Part shown: in pieces, positions 1,424 through 50,137 of the stretch | Position numbering within the stretch: position 1 is the stretch's first letter | Layout of the letters: the number at the start of each line of letters is the position of its first letter | From: an uncultured Gemmatimonadota bacterium | GTDB lineage: Bacteria > Gemmatimonadota > Gemmatimonadetes > Palauibacterales > Palauibacteraceae | NCBI GenBank assembly: GCA_913043255.1 | Contig: CAJWLK010000001.1 | Span: 407,045-471,044, forward strand | Length of the DNA stretch: 64,000 nucleotides | Direction of reading: 5' to 3' | Translations under genes and position numbers: made by a program | The notes under the pieces: model-generated | Databases searched by the model: none | What the model was told of the DNA's origin: nothing | What the model saw: only the letters and a program-made list of their open reading frames with translations

Positions 1424-3082
1424 TTAGAATGCGACCGGCTCCTTAAACCGCCCATATACACGCTCTAGTACAATACGAATTTCGCCAAGTGTCGCATAAG
1501 CTCGCACGGCGTCGAGTAACGGAGGCATAAGGTTTTCATCCGCACATGCCGCAGTTTCAAGCCGCTCAAGCGTCTCTTCTACCGTCCCCGCATCCCTACT
1601 CGACCGAAGTTCGGTTAGCCTCTTCTCCTGACTCTCCGCTGCTTCCTCTCCAATTCTGAGAATTTCGATCGGGGACTCCTCATCATCGATAAAGCGATTG
1701 ACACCAACAATGGTTTGTAACCCTTGTTCAATTTCATCCTGCGAACGGCGGGCGGAAGCAGCGATCTGTGCCTGGAAGTATCCGCCTTCGATACCCGGCA
1801 CGACGCCTCCTATCTCATCGATATCGCCAAAAATAGCTTCGGCTTCGGCTTCGAGGGCATCGGTAAGCGACTCCACGTAATAAGATCCTGCAAGCGGGTC
1901 AATCGTATTCGTCACACCGGTTTCATACGCCAAGATCTGCTGAGTGCGTAGTGCAATTTTCGCGGCCTCTTCGGTTGGTAGGGCCAGCGTTTCGTCCATC
2001 GCATTTGTGTGAAGCGATTGAGTTCCTCCCAGCACAGCTGCCATCGCCTGGTAGGACGCTCGCACAATATTATTGTGTGGCTGCTGAGCTGTTAGCGAAA
2101 CGCCTGCGGTCTGGACATGCGTGCGAAGCTGCAGGCTCTTGGGATTCCTGGCCCCATACACATCACGCATGTGACGCGCCCAAATGCGTCGTGCGGCACG
2201 AAGCTTGGCAATCTCCTCGAAAAAATCATTATGGACATCCCAAAAGAATGAAAGCCGCGGAGCAAAGCTATCTACCTCGAGGCCACGTTCAATCCCCGAT
2301 TCGACATACGTGAACCCGTTCTTCAGGGTATACGCCAGCTCCTGCCCGGCGGTCGCTCCAGCTTCCCGGATGTGATAGCCCGAGATCGAGATTGTATGGA
2401 ACTTTTGGGCATTCGATGACGACCACTCGAAAATGTCCGTGATCACCTTCAGAGCAGGCTCAGGTGGAAAGATCCACGCATGTTGAGCCTGGTACTCCTT
2501 CAAGATGTCATTCTGGATCGTGCCGCGGAGCTGATCGAACGGCACGCCCTGCTTTTCTGCGGTTATAAGCAGGAAGGCGTAGAGCATGAGAGCCGGCCCA
2601 TTAATAGTCATGGACACAGACACCTGATCGAGTGGAATCCCATCGAATAGGGCCTCCATATCCGCGAGGCTCGAAATAGCCACTCCGCACTTCCCGACTT
2701 CACCTTCCGAGCGTGGGTCGTCCGAATCATATCCCATGAGTGTGGGAAAATCGAAAGCGACTGAAAGTCCGGTCTGGCCTCGCTCGAGCAAGTACTTATA
2801 GCGCTCGTTTGTCTCGTGGGCCGTCGCAAAACCCGAGAACAACCGCATCGTCCACAGCCTCGTGCGGTACATCGAATGATATGGGCCTCGTGTATAGGGG
2901 AATTCCCCAGGCAGCCCTATGTCATCAAGATAACGTGACCCGTCAAAATCTAGTGGAGTATAAAGCGGTTCAATGTCGCGACCAGAGATGCTTCGAAAGC
3001 TCGCGTCCTCTCGCTCAGGGGTTTGCCGAAGCACGGCCCCCCAGAGTTCGAGTTGGTCACTAAGATTCCCCTTGTCAGTCAT
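1424..3082 (-). CDS. Methylmalonyl-CoA mutase family, catalytic (TIM-barrel) subunit only; no B12-binding domain.
   Basis: 552 aa with strong mutase-like conservation ending at the end of the barrel domain; MeaB is encoded immediately upstream. Confidence 0.85.
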   Translation of the reverse strand: MTDKGNLSDQLELWGAVLRQTPEREDASFRSISGRDIEPLYTPLDFDGSRYLDDIGLPGEFPYTRGPYHSMYRTRLWTMRLFSGFATAHETNERYKYLLERGQTGLSVAFDFPTLMGYDSDDPRSEGEVGKCGVAISSLADMEALFDGIPLDQVSVSMTINGPALMLYAFLLITAEKQGVPFDQLRGTIQNDILKEYQAQHAWIFPPEPALKVITDIFEWSSSNAQKFHTISISGYHIREAGATAGQELAYTLKNGFTYVESGIERGLEVDSFAPRLSFFWDVHNDFFEEIAKLRAARRIWARHMRDVYGARNPKSLQLRTHVQTAGVSLTAQQPHNNIVRASYQAMAAVLGGTQSLHTNAMDETLALPTEEAAKIALRTQQILAYETGVTNTIDPLAGSYYVESLTDALEAEAEAIFGDIDEIGGVVPGIEGGYFQAQIAASARRSQDEIEQGLQTIVGVNRFIDDEESPIEILRIGEEAAESQEKRLTELRSSRDAGTVEETLERLETAACADENLMPPLLDAVRAYATLGEIRIVLERVYGRFKEPVAF

Positions 3083-19048: not shown

Positions 19049-19683
19049 ACTGGATCCTTTACTACACTCACAAACTGCGCAATCAGATTCGGCGACTTTA
19101 CACCCGGTGTGTCCTCTACCGCTGAAGACACATCCACAATGTCGGGGCGGACCTTCTCTATAGCCGTACAGACGTTCTTAGTGGTCAATCCCCCCGCAAG
19201 CACCAATCTAGGGCCGTTTCGGTCAAGACCTGTAAGCCAGTCATACGGAAACGTGGACCCGGTGCCTCCGGCTGCTTCCACTGAAAATCCTTCAACGAGG
19301 ATTGCATCTGAAACGGCAGCATAGCGTGCCCACGCGTCAACAAGATCCTGGCGTTTCATTGGACGAATGGCCTTCCAAACCGTAAGGCCTTCGGTACGCA
19401 GCATCTGGCAATCTGAAGGCGATTCAGACCCATGCATCTGCACAATATCGAATCCGGCCACATCTCGGTGAAGGAGAATGTCACTAGGCATAGTATCGAC
19501 AAAGACGCCTACAGCTCTCGTCCCACCATTTAAGACGGCTACTACGCGCGCAGCTTCCTCACAGGTCACACGACGTAACCGCTCTGCGAATACAACACCC
19601 GCGTACTCCGCACCAGCACGGCACGCTGCCCGAGCAGATTCAACTGTCTTAAGCCCACAGATCTTCACTTCAATACCGCTCAT
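19045..19683 (-). CDS. trpF: Phosphoribosylanthranilate isomerase
   Basis: VKICGL N-terminus, ~210 aa; overlaps trpB and trpC by 4 nt. Confidence 0.88.
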
Positions 19684-20516
19684 ACGGTATCGTTCCTGAG
19701 TGCTGACGGTTCCATCTCGCCACTCCTCGGGCGACGGGGGTGTCCGACGAGTGACTCGACCCCAGATTGTGGATCACCTTTCATAAGCCAACCACCAACT
19801 AAAATAGCATCCGCTCCCGCCGAGCCAGCTGCCACTGCATCTTCCGGCGAGCCAATTCCACTTTCAGCAACGGCTACAACCGACGACGGTAGACTTTCGA
19901 TCAACCGAAGAGCCTGTTCGAAATCGACTTTGAAACTCGCAAGATCACGCGCATTTACGCCGATGAGGCGAGCTCCACATTCCAATGCTTTATCAATATC
20001 GCTTTCGTCGTGAGCCTCAACGAGCGCAGCAAGCCCAAGCTCACTCGACAGGTCAAGCAGCTCACGCATTCGATTGTCTGTGAGTGCTCGCGAAATAAGG
20101 AGAATGGCATCAGCCCCAGCCGCGCGAGCCTCATATAGCTGGACCGTATCGAGTATGAAATCTTTCCTGAGGAGTGGAACTCCTACAGCTTCACGTGCCG
20201 ACCGGAGATCTTCAAGTGAACCGCCGAAATAGGTCTCATCGGTAAGGATTGAAATGGCTGCGGCCCCTCCAGCCTCATACACAGAAGCCTGCCCAGCCAC
20301 TTGAGCGTAAGGATTAATGTCCCCAGCCGACGGTGACCGGCGCTTGAACTCAGCGATGACTGAGACTTCAGACGGTCGCTGGAGGGCTACTTCAAAGCCC
20401 CGTAATGGCGGAGCCTTAACAACCTGTGCTTCTAGTGCCTTACTAAATAAAGCCAGGCTCGTAATCTCATCACGCTTCGTCCTGAGTATCTCTTCAAGAA
20501 TAGTTTGCTTTGCCAT
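19680..20516 (-). CDS. trpC: Indole-3-glycerol-phosphate synthase
   Basis: ILEEILRTKRDEI N-terminus and conserved barrel motifs. Confidence 0.9.
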   Translation of the reverse strand: MAKQTILEEILRTKRDEITSLALFSKALEAQVVKAPPLRGFEVALQRPSEVSVIAEFKRRSPSAGDINPYAQVAGQASVYEAGGAAAISILTDETYFGGSLEDLRSAREAVGVPLLRKDFILDTVQLYEARAAGADAILLISRALTDNRMRELLDLSSELGLAALVEAHDESDIDKALECGARLIGVNARDLASFKVDFEQALRLIESLPSSVVAVAESGIGSPEDAVAAGSAGADAILVGGWLMKGDPQSGVESLVGHPRRPRSGEMEPSALRNDTV

Positions 20517-20656
20517 CTATCAAAGCTGCGACTTGAAGCATTCGAAGTCCACTGTAACCAGTTGCGATTCGGCTCTTATTCGGGTATGTTCGGTTCGCAT
20601 TCGGTCCGCAACAGAAGACCACGGCAGGCGATTTCGACTTTTCTCGGCGAGGAGAT

Positions 20657-21265
20657 ATGGCTCTCACAAAGCGGCAACGCGAGATGTTGGACTTTATTGA
20701 GGGATTTGTTCGCTTTCGGGGATACTCTCCCAGCTTTGAAGAGATTGCGCAAAGCTTCGGTTATCGATCATTAGCCACTGTGCATGAACATCTGAGTAAT
20801 CTCCAGGCAAAAGGTTACATCAGGAAAAACTATAATGAAAGCCGCTCGATTGAACTTGTCGATGGCGAACTTCGAGTGGCCGCGGTTGAACTCCCCTTAC
20901 ATGGAAATGTCGCTGCAGGGATGCCAATCGAAGCCATTGAGGACAATGAATCGATTGCCGTTCCGGAAGATATGATCTCGGGATCATTAAACGAGCATTA
21001 CGTCCTGCGAGTCCGAGGAAGTTCCATGATCGAGGAGCAGATCCGCGACGGTGACTATGTGATTGTGCAGTCTCGGAATACGGCCCATAACGGAGAGATG
21101 GTGATTGCGCTTGTTGATGGTGAAAACGCGACGATGAAGAAGTTCTACCGCGAAGAGAATGAAATTCGCCTACAACCGGCGAATTCAACTCTCACTCCCA
21201 TGTATTTTGACCCGAGCAGAATTATGATTCAAGGTGTGGTGATTGGAGTGATCCGACGCTACTAG
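20657..21265 (+). CDS. lexA: LexA repressor (S24 peptidase)
   Basis: Winged-helix N-terminus (LTKRQREMLDFI), Ala-Gly cleavage site and Ser/Lys dyad region. Confidence 0.92.
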   Translation: MALTKRQREMLDFIEGFVRFRGYSPSFEEIAQSFGYRSLATVHEHLSNLQAKGYIRKNYNESRSIELVDGELRVAAVELPLHGNVAAGMPIEAIEDNESIAVPEDMISGSLNEHYVLRVRGSSMIEEQIRDGDYVIVQSRNTAHNGEMVIALVDGENATMKKFYREENEIRLQPANSTLTPMYFDPSRIMIQGVVIGVIRRY

Positions 21266-45217: not shown

Positions 45218-46291
45218 TTAAGCATCTCCCGAGACGACTGCTTGAGCCGTCTTTGCAGTTTCAGTATCATCACTGTCTGCTGAGACAGACATGCCTAGTT
45301 CTTCACGAATCAACGCCTCAATTTCTTCGGCAATGTCCGGATTTTCGCAGAGAAACGCCTTAGAATTTTCCCGCCCTTGCCCGAGTCGCAGGTCATTGCC
45401 ATAGGAATACCACGCTCCCGCTCGGTTTACTACGCCAATCTCCTCACCCATATCAATAAGTAGCCCTTCGCGACTCACTCCGCGGTTAAACATTATGTCG
45501 AACTCAGCCTGCTTAAAGGGCGGGGCACACTTGTTCTTCACAACCTTAACTCGCGTACGATTCCCAATCTGGTCATTCGCTTCTTTGATCGACGCGATAC
45601 GTCGGATGTCCAGGCGCAGCGATGCATAAAACTTGAGTGCACGGCCACCACTCGTGGTTTCTGGGCTTCCATACATGACCCCGATCTTTTCACGAATTTG
45701 ATTTGTGAAAATCACAGCTGTGTTTGACCGACCTATAGCACCGGTAAGCTTTCGCAATGCTTGGGACATAAGCCGAGCTTGAAGACCGACATGTGAATCT
45801 CCCATCTCACCTTCGATCTCCGCACGGGGAACAAGTGCGGCAACTGAATCAACGACGACGACATCTAAGGCACTTGATCGAACTAACACTTCGGCAATCT
45901 CAAGTGCTTGTTCTCCAGTATCTGGCTGGGAGACGAGGAGGTTCTCAATATCGACCCCTAACTTCTGCGCGTACCCAACATCAAGGGCATGTTCGACATC
46001 GATAAAGGCAGCAACCCCACCATCTTTTTGGGCGTTCGCAATCACCTGGAGCGTCATCGTTGTTTTTCCGGATGATTCTGGGCCATAAATCTCGGTGACA
46101 CGGGAACGAGGCACTCCTCCAATACCCGTAGCGTAATCTAAATTGAGCGCACCTGTTGAAATGGCAGGAATCTGGATCCGTGCACCTTCATTGCCTAAAC
46201 GCATAATGGCCCCCTTGCCATGGGACCGCTCAATTTGGTCTACCGCTAAGGACAATGCCTTTTTTCGTTCCTTATTCGTCTCCACACCCAT
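45218..46291 (-). CDS. recA: Recombinase RecA. The start was moved to the ATG at 46291, which has a GGAGAG RBS; the track ORF begins at an upstream TTG.
   Basis: Walker [11 protein letters not shown]1/L2 loops and near-universal conservation. Confidence 0.95.
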
Positions 46292-46568
46292 TTCACACTC
46301 TCCAAAGTTCACGAGCTCGCAGATTCCTACGTCGGACAGCAAGCTCAGCTACCAAGCGATACTAATTGAGAATACTACGGATTCTTACCTTTCGCAATTT
46401 ATTCGGTTTTTAGGGCAGTGAGGGGGGGGCACATTTCGGGCCCTATTCGGTTTTTCCGTTCGGTTGAGAATATGAATCATTAAATAAGGGGGGATATCAG
46501 GTGCCTCCCCCCTCTTAAGTGCTTAACCGCGCGTAGAGTCACTTCGTAAATGAGCGTGAAGCTTAAGC

Positions 46569-46940
46569 TTAAGGAACCTGAGACACCCCAATATCTCTCA
46601 TAGCTCCACACAGGTGGCAGAACGATGAACCCTCACCCAACATCGCCCCGCATGAACCACAGTTATTTGAAGGACCAGATCCCATGCGAATCATTTCCTC
46701 CTCGTCACGAGCAAGAAGGGCTGTTCGTTCAAGACCCGAGCGTGTGAGTTCATATTCCTCAGAGGTAATTTTTCGGGTCTGATAATCGAGTTCGAGATCA
46801 CGTAGCGCTTCAATTGCGGCATCACGGCGTTCAGCAGGGACCAACACTGTTCCCGTATCTTCTCCGGCGCGAAGTGCAGCCCAAACTATTGTCACCAAAA
46901 GGATAAATAGAATCCCTCCGAACAGCACGAATCCGGTCAC
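46569..46940 (-). CDS. Small membrane protein with a C-terminal zinc ribbon (CxxC-x13-CxxC)
   Basis: N-terminal TM helix, charged linker and C-terminal CGSCG...CHLCG motif. Confidence 0.45.
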   Translation of the reverse strand: MTGFVLFGGILFILLVTIVWAALRAGEDTGTVLVPAERRDAAIEALRDLELDYQTRKITSEEYELTRSGLERTALLARDEEEMIRMGSGPSNNCGSCGAMLGEGSSFCHLCGAMRDIGVSQVP

Positions 46941-47452
46941 GATGTTGACCGCCTACGTGCCTCTGCCAGTTCAACCGCACGTGCGACTGCCTCACTGGGA
47001 CTAGATGCAAGCTCTTCCAGAACGTCATTAGGCAAGGCGGTTTCAAGGCCAATGAGGGGCACGTGAAATTTCCGACAGAATGCGGCTTCACTAAGTGTCC
47101 CCCATTCACCGGCAATGGCGATCACCGCTTCAGATGATCTTACCACCAATACGTTCCTTGCCTCACCCAGTCCCGTTGGGAGGGGGATCGATATGCCAGA
47201 AGCAGCATCAGCGGGATCGGAACCAGGAAGAATGCCGATGACGACACCTCCCTCTTGGGCAGCACCAACCGCCGCCGCCGCCATAACACCACCGAGCCCT
47301 CCGCACACGACTATGGCCTCTGCCCGGGCGATCGCCGATCCAACTTCTTTCGCCAACTCCCCCACCGAATCCGAAACTGATCCGGAGCCGATCACACCAA
47401 TTCGAAGTGGTTGGTTCAGTGTACCCTTTTTAGAAAACCACCCAGGGCTCAC
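46937..47452 (-). CDS. TIGR00725/LOG-like (Rossmann, DprA/LOG superfamily) protein
   Basis: IGVIGSGS glycine-rich motif followed by VVCGGLGGVM. Confidence 0.7.
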   Translation of the reverse strand: MSPGWFSKKGTLNQPLRIGVIGSGSVSDSVGELAKEVGSAIARAEAIVVCGGLGGVMAAAAVGAAQEGGVVIGILPGSDPADAASGISIPLPTGLGEARNVLVVRSSEAVIAIAGEWGTLSEAAFCRKFHVPLIGLETALPNDVLEELASSPSEAVARAVELAEARRRSTS

Positions 47453-47888: not shown

Positions 47889-48130
47889 AACTATCAAAGA
47901 CCTCAAACAAAGCAAGTGTACCTAAGGTTTCCCACATCTAGAAATAAAACAGGCACTTTCAAAAAATATCACTGACCCTCATGTCTCATCGAATGACTTA
48001 ACATCATAATTCATATTACACGATTTTTATACACCTGACCCATATATTTCTCAATCACTTTTTAAAGAAATACACTTACAAAACACCTGAGAGGAGGATC
48101 ATCACGAAGTCAATTATTACTTTTTTACAC

Positions 48131-50137
48131 TTAGAGAGTTTGCCCCGTCAAAATTGACAGATCAGCCAAGGAACGAACCTCAAAACGAGTCGCAGTCTGG
48201 TCGAGACGAGCTAGCAAGCGGTTAAGTAATGCATCTTTTGGAAGAGTGCGACGCAAACCATCAACCGCAGCTACAATGATCAATCGCTCGCGGGCACGTG
48301 AAAGTGCAACATTCAGAAGGCGCGGAAAATCTGGATTGCGACGTTCATCTAAAAACCAACTTCTACTAGGTGGCGCATCAACTGTGTCAATAACCACGAT
48401 ACGTTTCTCACGACCTTGAAAACGATGTATGGTACTCACCTGAACACCTTGTGGTGCCGACTTACCTAAACGACGTCGTACAAGGTCTTTAAGGTGTGTC
48501 GTGTGTGCCCGGTAGGGAGATACCACACCAATATCACCTGCTCCGACTCGACCAGCCTCGGCGAGAAACTCCAAAACCACTTCGGCATGAACAGAATTCC
48601 GCCGAGAACCGTCAATACGTTCAACCGATGGATCAAGTGAAGAAGTATCGAAGATCACTATTTGGTCGCCGATGGGTAGACCTCGCGTCATCTGCGGCGC
48701 ATCGGTCAACCGCCCGTCATAAAAGAACTCACTCACTATCTGTCGAATATCGGGCGCCATTCGGTACTGAACATCAAGCATCGCGCACAAACCATCGTTC
48801 GGAGATGGCAAGGCAATATGTCCTTTATCCGTCGACACAACGCCTGTCTCGTGAAAGAGGTCTCGGCGAAACCAACGGCGGGCCGCAGGACCACGGCTAA
48901 TTACCACCGGAGGCAGTTGTTGAAAATCACCAACGCCCACCGTTCGGCATGAAGTCCTCGAGGCTGCAAGAGCAAGGTATGGCAAGGGAACGGTACTTAT
49001 TTCATCGACAATGAGGGATTCATAGTGCAGACTGCGAAGTTCTTCCCGTACGGATAATCGGGCCAATGTCGTTAAAATAACCTCCGCCTCCTCAAGCATT
49101 TGAGCTGCCTGTCGAGAAATCTCAAAGATAGCACGACTAGCTGCACGTGCCGCCTCTCCATCACCATGAACCCCAGCTAGAGCGAACAATCGAGCTGCTC
49201 GAGATCTTGGCCTAGATCTATCGTGAGCCACCGAAGCAGCCCTCGGACGCTGTCGTACACCAAGACGACCCTCAATGTCTTTGAGAACCTCGGCTATTTT
49301 GCCCGCTCCCGCTTCAACACGACGGGCAAGACAAGCCTCAAAATCAAGCCTTGGATCGATAGCATCCGACCTAATATCGGAGCCCACACGCAGAATCCGA
49401 CCCCCTTCTAACTGAGCAGGATCAGCGACCCTGCTCAGTCGCCTTGCTACTTCATCTACTGCTCCATTCGTGGCCGCCGTAATAAGCACCCTCCCCTGAC
49501 GTGCTAGCTCAAGGGCTGCTCGCGCTACAAGTCGAGATTTTCCTGTCCCCGGGGGGCCCCAAACAAGCTGAACATCACTTCCAAGAATTCGACCAAGTGC
49601 GGCACTTTGTGGCCCGTTCAAGTCCGATGAACTGGCGAGGACAGATGGTCCTACCCCCAAGCTAGGCGGCTCTATCCCGAAAGTGTTAAGAACGGTTTTT
49701 GGGAAAAAGTTCTGTGGCTCTGCTGCAAGTTCTCTTAGCCGGATTGACAGTTCACACAAAAGCCATGTCGGATCGAACTCTAGCTCGACCCCATTGGGGC
49801 TGTCACCGATCCATTCAATCAAATCCAACTGCAGTAGGCCCGAGGAACGGTCAAATGCCACGACATTTCCCAAACTCTCTCGCCCCCCAGTACGAAGACG
49901 TACGTGATCATCGGCTCGAATGTCGTACATTCCTCCCGTAATCTGAAATTCATACCGGTGGCCAACACCTGACTCGCGGCGTACCCAACCGGCGAGGGTA
50001 GAAATAGGGCTGTCCAACTGACGTCGAGTCAGATCTGTCTGGATTGCTTCAATCTCTTCCTCGATCGCGAGTTGGCAGTCCGCCAACAAGAGGTGGAGCG
50101 GCCCCAGGGAATCAGGAGCAGCCATGTCAGACGCCAA
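48131..50137 (-). CDS. Superfamily-1 Upf1/DNA2-like helicase with a ~190-aa uncharacterised N-terminal domain
   Basis: Walker A GPPGTGKS, DE box (LIVDEIS) and motif VI (VALSRARERL). Confidence 0.75.
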   Translation of the reverse strand: MASDMAAPDSLGPLHLLLADCQLAIEEEIEAIQTDLTRRQLDSPISTLAGWVRRESGVGHRYEFQITGGMYDIRADDHVRLRTGGRESLGNVVAFDRSSGLLQLDLIEWIGDSPNGVELEFDPTWLLCELSIRLRELAAEPQNFFPKTVLNTFGIEPPSLGVGPSVLASSSDLNGPQSAALGRILGSDVQLVWGPPGTGKSRLVARAALELARQGRVLITAATNGAVDEVARRLSRVADPAQLEGGRILRVGSDIRSDAIDPRLDFEACLARRVEAGAGKIAEVLKDIEGRLGVRQRPRAASVAHDRSRPRSRAARLFALAGVHGDGEAARAASRAIFEISRQAAQMLEEAEVILTTLARLSVREELRSLHYESLIVDEISTVPLPYLALAASRTSCRTVGVGDFQQLPPVVISRGPAARRWFRRDLFHETGVVSTDKGHIALPSPNDGLCAMLDVQYRMAPDIRQIVSEFFYDGRLTDAPQMTRGLPIGDQIVIFDTSSLDPSVERIDGSRRNSVHAEVVLEFLAEAGRVGAGDIGVVSPYRAHTTHLKDLVRRRLGKSAPQGVQVSTIHRFQGREKRIVVIDTVDAPPSRSWFLDERRNPDFPRLLNVALSRARERLIIVAAVDGLRRTLPKDALLNRLLARLDQTATRFEVRSLADLSILTGQTL

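Follow-up and report, generated by a model that had tools for sequence, protein, structure and literature searches.

A candidate direct-repeat LexA motif at the recA and lexA promoters of an uncultured Gemmatimonadota bacterium

Introduction

Does the unusual sequence upstream of recA in an uncultured Gemmatimonadota bacterium act as RNA, in a structured leader of the recA transcript, or as DNA, in operators at the recA promoter? The locus lies on contig CAJWLK010000001.1, within a stretch of 64,000 nucleotides that we analysed as a whole (the window). The recA intergenic spacer occupies positions 46292–46568 (277 bp) between recA and a small upstream open reading frame (ORF) encoding 123 aa, both on the minus strand. 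It holds several G and C runs and two families of short direct repeats, which an earlier reading of the letters (the original prediction) had taken for a transcribed leader of riboswitch or attenuator type with repeats that might stand in for a classical LexA box. Our analysis favours a composite region, which combines the 3' end of the upstream operon with a recA promoter under SOS control that bears two putative LexA operators, a reading to which we assign a probability of roughly 65%. The G/C tracts, judged by comparison with related genomes, are most likely strain-specific sequence and no conserved RNA switch.

Results

The repeats upstream of recA belong to two TTCG-N7-TTCGG sites

Every string named in the original prediction is present upstream of recA, with three coordinates off by one. 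The 12-mer TATTCGGTTTTT occurs at 46400–46411, one base higher than had been given, and at 46444–46455, as given. It is part of a 25-nt direct repeat whose copies are 76% identical (repeat search); by our arithmetic about 0.004 such 12-mer pairs are expected by chance in 370 bp, and the pair is far beyond chance. The two copies are the 3' halves of 18-bp TTCG-N7-TTCGG sites, which read CCGAA-N7-CGAA on the recA strand and lie 44 bp apart, four times the 11-bp half-site period:

46390–46407, plus strand (inverted relative to recA): proximal putative LexA-type operator TTTCGCAATTTATTCGGT, holding the first TATTCGGTTTTT copy; matrix score 24.4, the highest in the window
46434–46451, plus strand: distal putative LexA-type operator TTTCGGGCCCTATTCGGT, holding the second TATTCGGTTTTT copy; matrix score 19.2; 44 bp upstream of the proximal site
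46408–46433, unstranded: variable spacer between the operators, containing the G8 run at 46422–46429 (C8 on the recA strand)

The exact pattern TTCGNNNNNNATTCGG has four matches in the window, two before recA and two before lexA, compared with 0.22 expected in 64 kb; none of 100 shuffles reached four. When the window was scanned with a scoring matrix, the four best intergenic matches were these same sites, and no intergenic site was found beyond the recA and lexA promoters. The original prediction had suspected regulatory repeats in place of a classical LexA box, and this idea holds up: no gamma- or Gram-positive-type box was found at recA (CTGT-N8-ACAG, GAAC-N4-GTTC and TGTTC-N4-GAACA each have at least three mismatches), and TATTCGGTTTTT represents operator halves common with the lexA promoter.

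Two further matches fall within coding sequence. A strong one (TTTCGCGGCCTCTTCGGT, score 20.1) lies at 1958–1975 on the plus strand, within an ORF of 552 aa encoded on the other strand (1424–3082) that resembles methylmalonyl-CoA mutase by eye only. A weak third match near the recA promoter (TTTCGTTCCTTATTCGTC, score 10.0, without the GG) lies at 46263–46280 on the plus strand, in codons 4–9 of the recA coding sequence, with 127 bp between it and the proximal operator; the RecA N-terminal residues T-N-K-E-R-K probably dictate it.

The lexA promoter carries the same sites

A tblastn search with E. coli LexA (E = 2.9e-29) located lexA in the window, and a protein identical to its product (P0001) carries PF01726 (LexA_DNA_bind) and PF00717 (Peptidase_S24). 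The gene and its promoter comprise:

20657–21265, plus strand: lexA, 202 aa, canonical cleavable LexA (VAAG cleavage site, GSSM serine, MKKF lysine)
20562–20605, plus strand: lexA promoter, with -35 TTGCGA at 20562–20567 and -10 TATGTT at 20585–20590
20567–20584, plus strand: putative lexA operator 1, ATTCGGCTCTTATTCGGG, between -35 and -10
20588–20605, plus strand: putative lexA operator 2, GTTCGGTTCGCATTCGGT, overlapping the -10

The two sites are 21 bp apart, and a two-site layout recurs in all lexA promoters examined (seven loci, L161–L163 and L171–L174), with a spacing of 21 or 26 bp. These seven loci encode four distinct further LexA proteins, 70–86% identical to that of the window; their promoters share invariant half-sites around differing spacers. 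At both genes the sites overlap predicted core elements, namely the -35 of recA and, at lexA, the -35/-10 interval and the -10. The lexA gene is divergent from a trpC-like gene (19680–20516, minus strand).

The motif is conserved across Gemmatimonadota

Close relatives for comparison came from look-ups of exact protein matches; a metagenome scan with RecA gave a top match merely 76% identical, unhelpful for close comparison. The syntenic relatives have RecA identities of 98% (L167), 95% (L164) and 89% (L168). A near-identical set consists of eight independent assemblies with identical RecA, six of which also have an identical spacer; the other two, L177 and L181, are 99.6% identical over 4 kb.

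In 32 Gemmatimonadota-type loci, recA is preceded by at least one motif site. Proximal-type sites score 20.0–26.0 in 31 such loci, compared with scores of at most 10 in 135 of 136 recA loci of other phyla. The half-sites TTCG and TTCGG are invariant, and the internal 7 nt vary among recA loci. All matrix matches above 17 in 170 kb of Gemmatimonadota loci lie upstream of recA or lexA, and in the ~234 kb examined the motif was found as a regulatory site at no place but these two promoters. The original prediction had proposed conservation in related genomes as a check on both the repeats and the G/C tracts, and for the repeats one family, TATTCGGTTTTT/TTCG-N7-TTCGG, proved conserved.

The distal site is limited to the closest relatives of the window (RecA 89–100% identical), which form one genus-level clade with operator spacings of 44, 44, 43 and 44 bp; it is conserved as TTTCGGATTTTATTCGGT in L164, L167 and L168 (44, 44 and 43 bp) and absent in L170 and L001–L004. 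In Gemmatimonadales-like genomes the site lies on the recA strand between -35 and -10 (e.g., TTTCGCTTTATGTTCGGGTATTATACT); in the clade of the window it lies inverted over the -35 (ACCGAAyAAATTGCGAAAG). Relatives of the cultured Gemmatimonas aurantiaca likewise have the site between -35 and -10 of recA. The orientation of the asymmetric operator relative to recA is thus opposite between Gemmatimonadota clades, as seen by comparing L005, L012, L030, L031, L058, L081–L083, L099, L135 and L148 with the window, L001–L004, L084 and L164–L170. One of the former, L030, carries two sites on the same strand, separated by 25 bp.

The predicted, conserved recA promoter lies downstream of all G/C tracts

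Read on the recA strand, the proximal operator contains the -35 of a predicted sigma-70-type promoter, TTGCGA-17-TATTCT, which is followed by a short 5' untranslated region (5' UTR):

46397–46392, minus strand: -35 hexamer TTGCGA, within the proximal operator; the lexA promoter has the same hexamer
46374–46369, minus strand: -10 hexamer TATTCT, the core of the first TTGAGAATA copy (46366–46374, plus strand) read on the other strand
46292–46362, minus strand: predicted 5' UTR, ~70 nt, placed by the conserved -10 position; well conserved
46298–46303, minus strand: Shine-Dalgarno sequence GGAGAG, 6 nt before the ATG, as read from the sequence
46464–46472, plus strand: second TTGAGAATA copy, probably fortuitous; non-significant and with no usable -35 upstream

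Two blocks, ACCGAA.AAATTGCGAAAG and GGAGAG.GTGAAATGGG, are invariant in a five-sequence intergenic alignment. The -10 occurs as TATTCT, TATTGT, TATAGT, TATACT or TATCGT, 17–18 nt after TTGCGA, in the window, L001–L004, L164–L170 and L175–L182. The alignment of relatives contains no other conserved promoter-like element further upstream of recA. Because TTGCGA-17-TATTCT is the only conserved promoter, recA transcription is predicted to start near 46362, downstream of all G/C tracts, repeats and both operators. A start in such a position had been named in the original prediction as an argument against a transcribed leader; we find it at the level of a promoter prediction.

Within the 5' UTR, a hairpin of 8–10 bp (GAGCUUGC/GCGAGCUC) is shared with four close relatives; two of its pairs are changed on both sides. 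It is no more stable than shuffled sequences (z = -0.97 to +0.10) and leaves the Shine-Dalgarno sequence uncovered.

The TTGAGAATA pair, of which the first copy starts one base higher than originally given and the second lies as given, has no significance, with ~0.26 such 9-mer pairs expected. The second copy reads TATTCGCAA in the 99.6% identical strain, where one substitution (L177 and L181) destroys it, and TTTTCTCAA, TTTTCTTAA or TTTTCTAGG in relatives. We rejected a second promoter built on its TATTCT (46472–46467), which has no -35 and loses the A at position 2 in relatives (TTTTCT). Also rejected was a palindromic operator, AGAAT-N7-ATTCT, between -35 and -10, which is restricted to the genus-level clade and absent in L170 and L001–L004.

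The G/C tracts fold but are not conserved

The clustering that drew attention to the spacer is a real local oddity: three of the 17 G or C runs of at least 6 nt in the window fall within 93 bp, and ~0.005 such clusters are expected (Poisson estimate). GAGGGGGGGGCAC occupies 46420–46432, ending one base earlier than had been given; GGTGCCTCCCCCCTC is correctly placed at 46500–46514, its run being C2-T-C6 (CC-T-CCCCCC) and not C8. The G6 run (46488–46493) lies as described within AGGGGGGA at 46487–46494. The palindromic stretch AAGCTTAAGCTTAAG (46559–46573) overlaps the TAA stop of the upstream ORF (46571–46569, minus strand). The recA-strand RNA therefore holds one G-run (46514–46500) and two C-runs (46494–46487 and 46432–46420). 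Their complementarity is trivial because the G and C runs are already there, and an 8-bp inverted repeat is unremarkable alone (~0.6 expected).

Folding of the recA-strand RNA yields both alternative pairings that had been proposed. The local hairpin AGGGGGGA-N11-UCCCCCCU has nine pairs, mostly G-C (-17.4 kcal/mol, z = -2.0). The long-range stem between the G-run and C8 has 13 bp with one bulge (-35.6 kcal/mol for the 111-nt segment) and is used in the minimum-free-energy folds of two RNAs, one of 111 nt (z = -3.0) and one of 296 nt (z = -2.7).

Comparison with relatives gives a different picture. The tracts and the hairpin are missing in L164, L167 and L168, and the tracts also in L170; the C8 position holds the unrelated sequences GACCCCCTCGCG, GAATGTGGTGGA and TGAGATATGAAC in L167, L164 and L168. 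L177 and L181 carry five substitutions in the spacer, which leave the operators, promoter, 5' UTR and local hairpin untouched; two of them break C8 (GTGCCCCCCCCTC to GTGACCCCCTCTC) with the G-run unchanged, that is, uncompensated. An Rfam search of 45900–47000 in E-value mode, to E = 10, returned just two weak, irrelevant matches outside the region. Along the RNA, the G-run is followed by C6, the U-tail and, after about 55 nt, C8; for an attenuator this order is wrong, because both the terminator-like hairpin and its U-rich tail are transcribed before C8.

Intergenic length is identical (280 nt) in all eight assemblies with identical RecA, without indels. The suggestion that the homopolymer is prone to slippage thus finds no echo here: tract length is the same in 8/8, and the variation consists of the substitutions in two. 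These assemblies are consensus sequences, in which minority homopolymer length variants are invisible. On this comparison, we regard the C8/G8 run as variable spacer with no demonstrable function. A plus-strand G-quadruplex at 46413–46440, considered and rejected, fits a relaxed motif only and shows no conservation.

A hairpin after the upstream stop codon

The G6/C6 hairpin lies at the other end of the spacer:

46487–46514, minus strand: hairpin AGGGGGGA-N11-TCCCCCCT, then TTATTTAAT; 55 nt past the upstream ORF stop; candidate strain-specific terminator

The ~85-nt segment to which it belongs is lacking from L164 and L167, and L168 has unrelated sequence in its place; no further copy of the segment was found in the window or the fetched loci. 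From its sequence and position, the hairpin may be a strain-specific terminator or insulator of the upstream operon, a natural guess because it follows the stop by 55 nt and immediately precedes the regulatory region of recA.

The ~85 nt right after the stop of the small ORF (46515–46568 compared with L164, L167 and L168) are a strain-level indel hotspot: the window and L168 carry different, unrelated post-stop segments, and L164 and L167 have none. A mobile or repeated element was rejected as an explanation, as an ~160-nt segment has no further copy in the window or any fetched locus.

Genomic context

The genes flanking the spacer are:

45218–46291, minus strand: recA coding sequence, 357 aa, from the ORF list, followed by recX and alaS
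46569–46940, minus strand: conserved 123-aa protein with no Pfam match, ending a dtd - LDcluster4 - small-ORF cluster

A product identical to the RecA of the window has RecA_N and RecA_C Pfam matches on record. The gene order dtd - LDcluster4 - small ORF - recA - recX - alaS is the same in relatives, and the small ORF is called as a gene of 117–124 aa in all syntenic ones. The best RecA matches in reference genomes are metagenome-assembled Gemmatimonadota (80–86% identity), the nearest named relatives in a large protein collection are Candidatus Palauibacter, and identical contigs come from Tara Oceans (samples TARA_SAMEA2622823 and TARA_SAMEA2622837 among them) and other marine metagenomes. 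These matches identify the bacterium as a marine member of the Gemmatimonadota with kinship to the Palauibacterales.

Upstream of the cluster, an AT-rich spacer of 215 bp (47916–48130; ~34% GC vs 52% for the window) separates dtd from a 668-aa ORF (48131–50137, minus strand) that is helicase-like by eye. Presumably, the dtd - LDcluster4 - small-ORF cluster has its promoter region in this spacer.

Discussion

Under the composite reading, LexA encoded at 20657–21265 would bind both recA operators. Occupancy of the proximal site would occlude the -35 and repress recA, and the distal site would raise occupancy via cooperative binding. Upon DNA damage, activated RecA would trigger LexA self-cleavage, and recA and lexA would be de-repressed.

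Several points weigh against this reading. We infer LexA as the binding protein by guilt-by-association from two genes only, and winged-helix response regulators, too, typically recognise direct repeats of 11-bp period. Many of the sites scored by the matrix had also served to train it, so that the specificity derived from it is partly circular; the exact-pattern test of TTCGNNNNNNATTCGG is free of that circularity. The match at 1958–1975 is probably a chance occurrence and, being intracoding, illustrates that chance matches do arise outside promoters. The recA promoter fits the E. coli consensus at only 8/12 positions, and a rule-based scan for promoters and terminators made no call on the recA strand (promoter 8/12; hairpin loop above the 3–8 nt limit). 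Read-through from the upstream operon would also transcribe the G/C tracts. As for the terminator part, the hairpin has an 11-nt loop and an interrupted U-tract in its tail (UUAUUUAAU), and terminator-like sites in the window number 58 vs about 56 expected, i.e., without enrichment. Matches to the consensus sigma-70 promoter are rarer than in shuffled sequence (26 vs ~44 expected over 60 kb). E. coli-type signal scans suit this genome poorly, because promoter matches are below, and terminator-like hairpins at, chance level.

How do the alternatives fare against the same evidence? The transcribed leader, in which the G-run would pair with either the nearby C6 or the distal C8 as in a riboswitch or attenuator, draws on three G/C runs within 93 bp and on two pairings that are both thermodynamically plausible, the long-range stem appearing in the minimum-free-energy folds. 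Against it stand the missing stems in relatives with 89–98% identical RecA, two uncompensated C8 substitutions in a 99.6% identical strain, the lack of an Rfam match, a conserved promoter downstream of all tracts and a C8 transcribed too late to pre-empt the hairpin. The lack of conservation, as seen in the sequences compared, already largely refutes this model, and we consider it very improbable. Even less credible is a contingency tract, in which length changes of G8/C8 would shift operator phasing or read-through and tune recA between cells. The 8-nt homopolymer does sit exactly between operators whose 44-bp spacing otherwise holds, but the spacer has one length in 8/8 assemblies with identical RecA (C8 intact in 6/8, substituted in 2/8), and relatives keep the 44-bp spacing without a homopolymer.

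More deserving of attention is a model that accepts the direct repeats as real operators and assigns them to another regulator, such as an OmpR/PhoB-type winged-helix response regulator, as suggested by a direct repeat with an 11-bp period and no palindrome. We consider this improbable: the motif is specific to lexA and recA promoters across the phylum in ~234 kb, its overlap with -35 and -10 is the geometry of a repressor, and other LexA motifs are known that are direct repeats in the same TTC-N8-TTC register. The ~85-nt hairpin segment and G8 run might also be neutral, strain-specific insertion or variation, the hairpin being no terminator. The hypervariable post-stop position (another insert in L168, none in L164 and L167) points that way, as do the long loop, the interrupted U-tract and the absence of terminator-like enrichment. 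Conversely, a mostly G-C stem of 9 bp (-17.4 kcal/mol) followed by a U-rich tail, 55 nt past a stop and just ahead of the next promoter, occupies the position expected of a terminator, and the hairpin is unchanged in the 99.6% identical strain despite five substitutions elsewhere in the spacer. We regard full neutrality as somewhat unlikely; still, the case for a terminator is weak, and a neutral insertion is nearly as likely.

LexA-binding motifs are known to differ between phyla, with direct repeats among them (PMC4951493, PMC7739468, PMC8565304). In Alphaproteobacteria, the direct-repeat motif GTTC-N7-GTTC is found at the recA and lexA promoters (PMC4951493, PMC8565304); sphingomonad recA loci fetched here show TGTTCCACTCTTGTTCT, with the TTC-N8-TTC register as in TTTCGCAATTTATTCGG. 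The Gemmatimonadota site is likewise a direct repeat with an 11-bp period and TTC-N8-TTC, located at recA and lexA. Unlike in the alphaproteobacterial box, which has a G there, the base 5' of TTC varies (T, A, C or G), and a 3' G/GG is conserved instead (24 sites); the recA sites read TTTC and ATTC, with two mismatches each to GTTC-N7-GTTC, and orientation relative to the gene flips between clades. By its sequence, the site would work like an alpha-type box, yet it fails the half-site definition of that box. In Balneolaeota, the direct-repeat motif TTACACATATTTTWTACATA was found from lexA promoters, covers lexA and recA and was validated by gel shift (PMC7739468). The Gemmatimonadota motif is a candidate for another such phylum-specific direct-repeat LexA motif, with the differences that its half-site is unrelated and that it is computational only.

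Promoters with several SOS operators have precedents as well. E. coli lexA has two SOS boxes. Tandem LexA sites occur at the lexA and imuA promoters of Verrucomicrobia (PMC4951493). Our loci resemble these in having two sites per promoter (21 bp apart at lexA, 44 bp at recA); they differ in the 44-bp gap at recA, which exceeds that between sites in the usual adjacent or overlapping layouts and places the distal site well upstream of the -35. The hairpin resembles an intrinsic terminator in its G-C-rich stem, U-rich tail and place after a stop and ahead of the next promoter, and departs from one in its loop, its U-tract, its lack of conservation and the missing enrichment. Similarly, the G-run of the recA spacer can pair with either of two C-runs, mutually exclusive on paper, as in attenuators and riboswitch platforms. 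Unlike in those systems, the competitor follows the terminator on its 3' side, neither a conserved aptamer nor a leader peptide is present, the stems show no covariation or conservation, Rfam has no match, and all these elements are placed upstream of the conserved promoter.

For the original prediction, the outcome is deflationary: we find no new RNA switch before recA, and the G/C tracts amount to strain-level noise, with a private terminator as the most that they could be. As a by-product, the analysis yields a well-supported candidate LexA-binding motif for Gemmatimonadota, a widespread and rarely cultured phylum. We found no description of a LexA motif or SOS regulon for this phylum in the searchable literature, which is incomplete, so that this is absence of evidence only. 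An evenly balanced proposal, for which we see about as much reason for belief as for doubt, is that Gemmatimonadota LexA reads TTCG-N7-TTCGG, a motif undescribed for the phylum that has the alpha register with shifted specificity and a flipped orientation between clades, and that one marine genus gained a second recA operator 44 bp (four half-site periods) upstream, suggesting cooperative or looped repression. In its consequences the result is modest and of specialist interest, in that it extends a known pattern and overturns nothing. With the motif in hand, the SOS regulon would be predictable in silico across hundreds of metagenome-assembled Gemmatimonadota genomes, and the motif adds a data point on the repeated move of LexA from palindromic to direct-repeat recognition.

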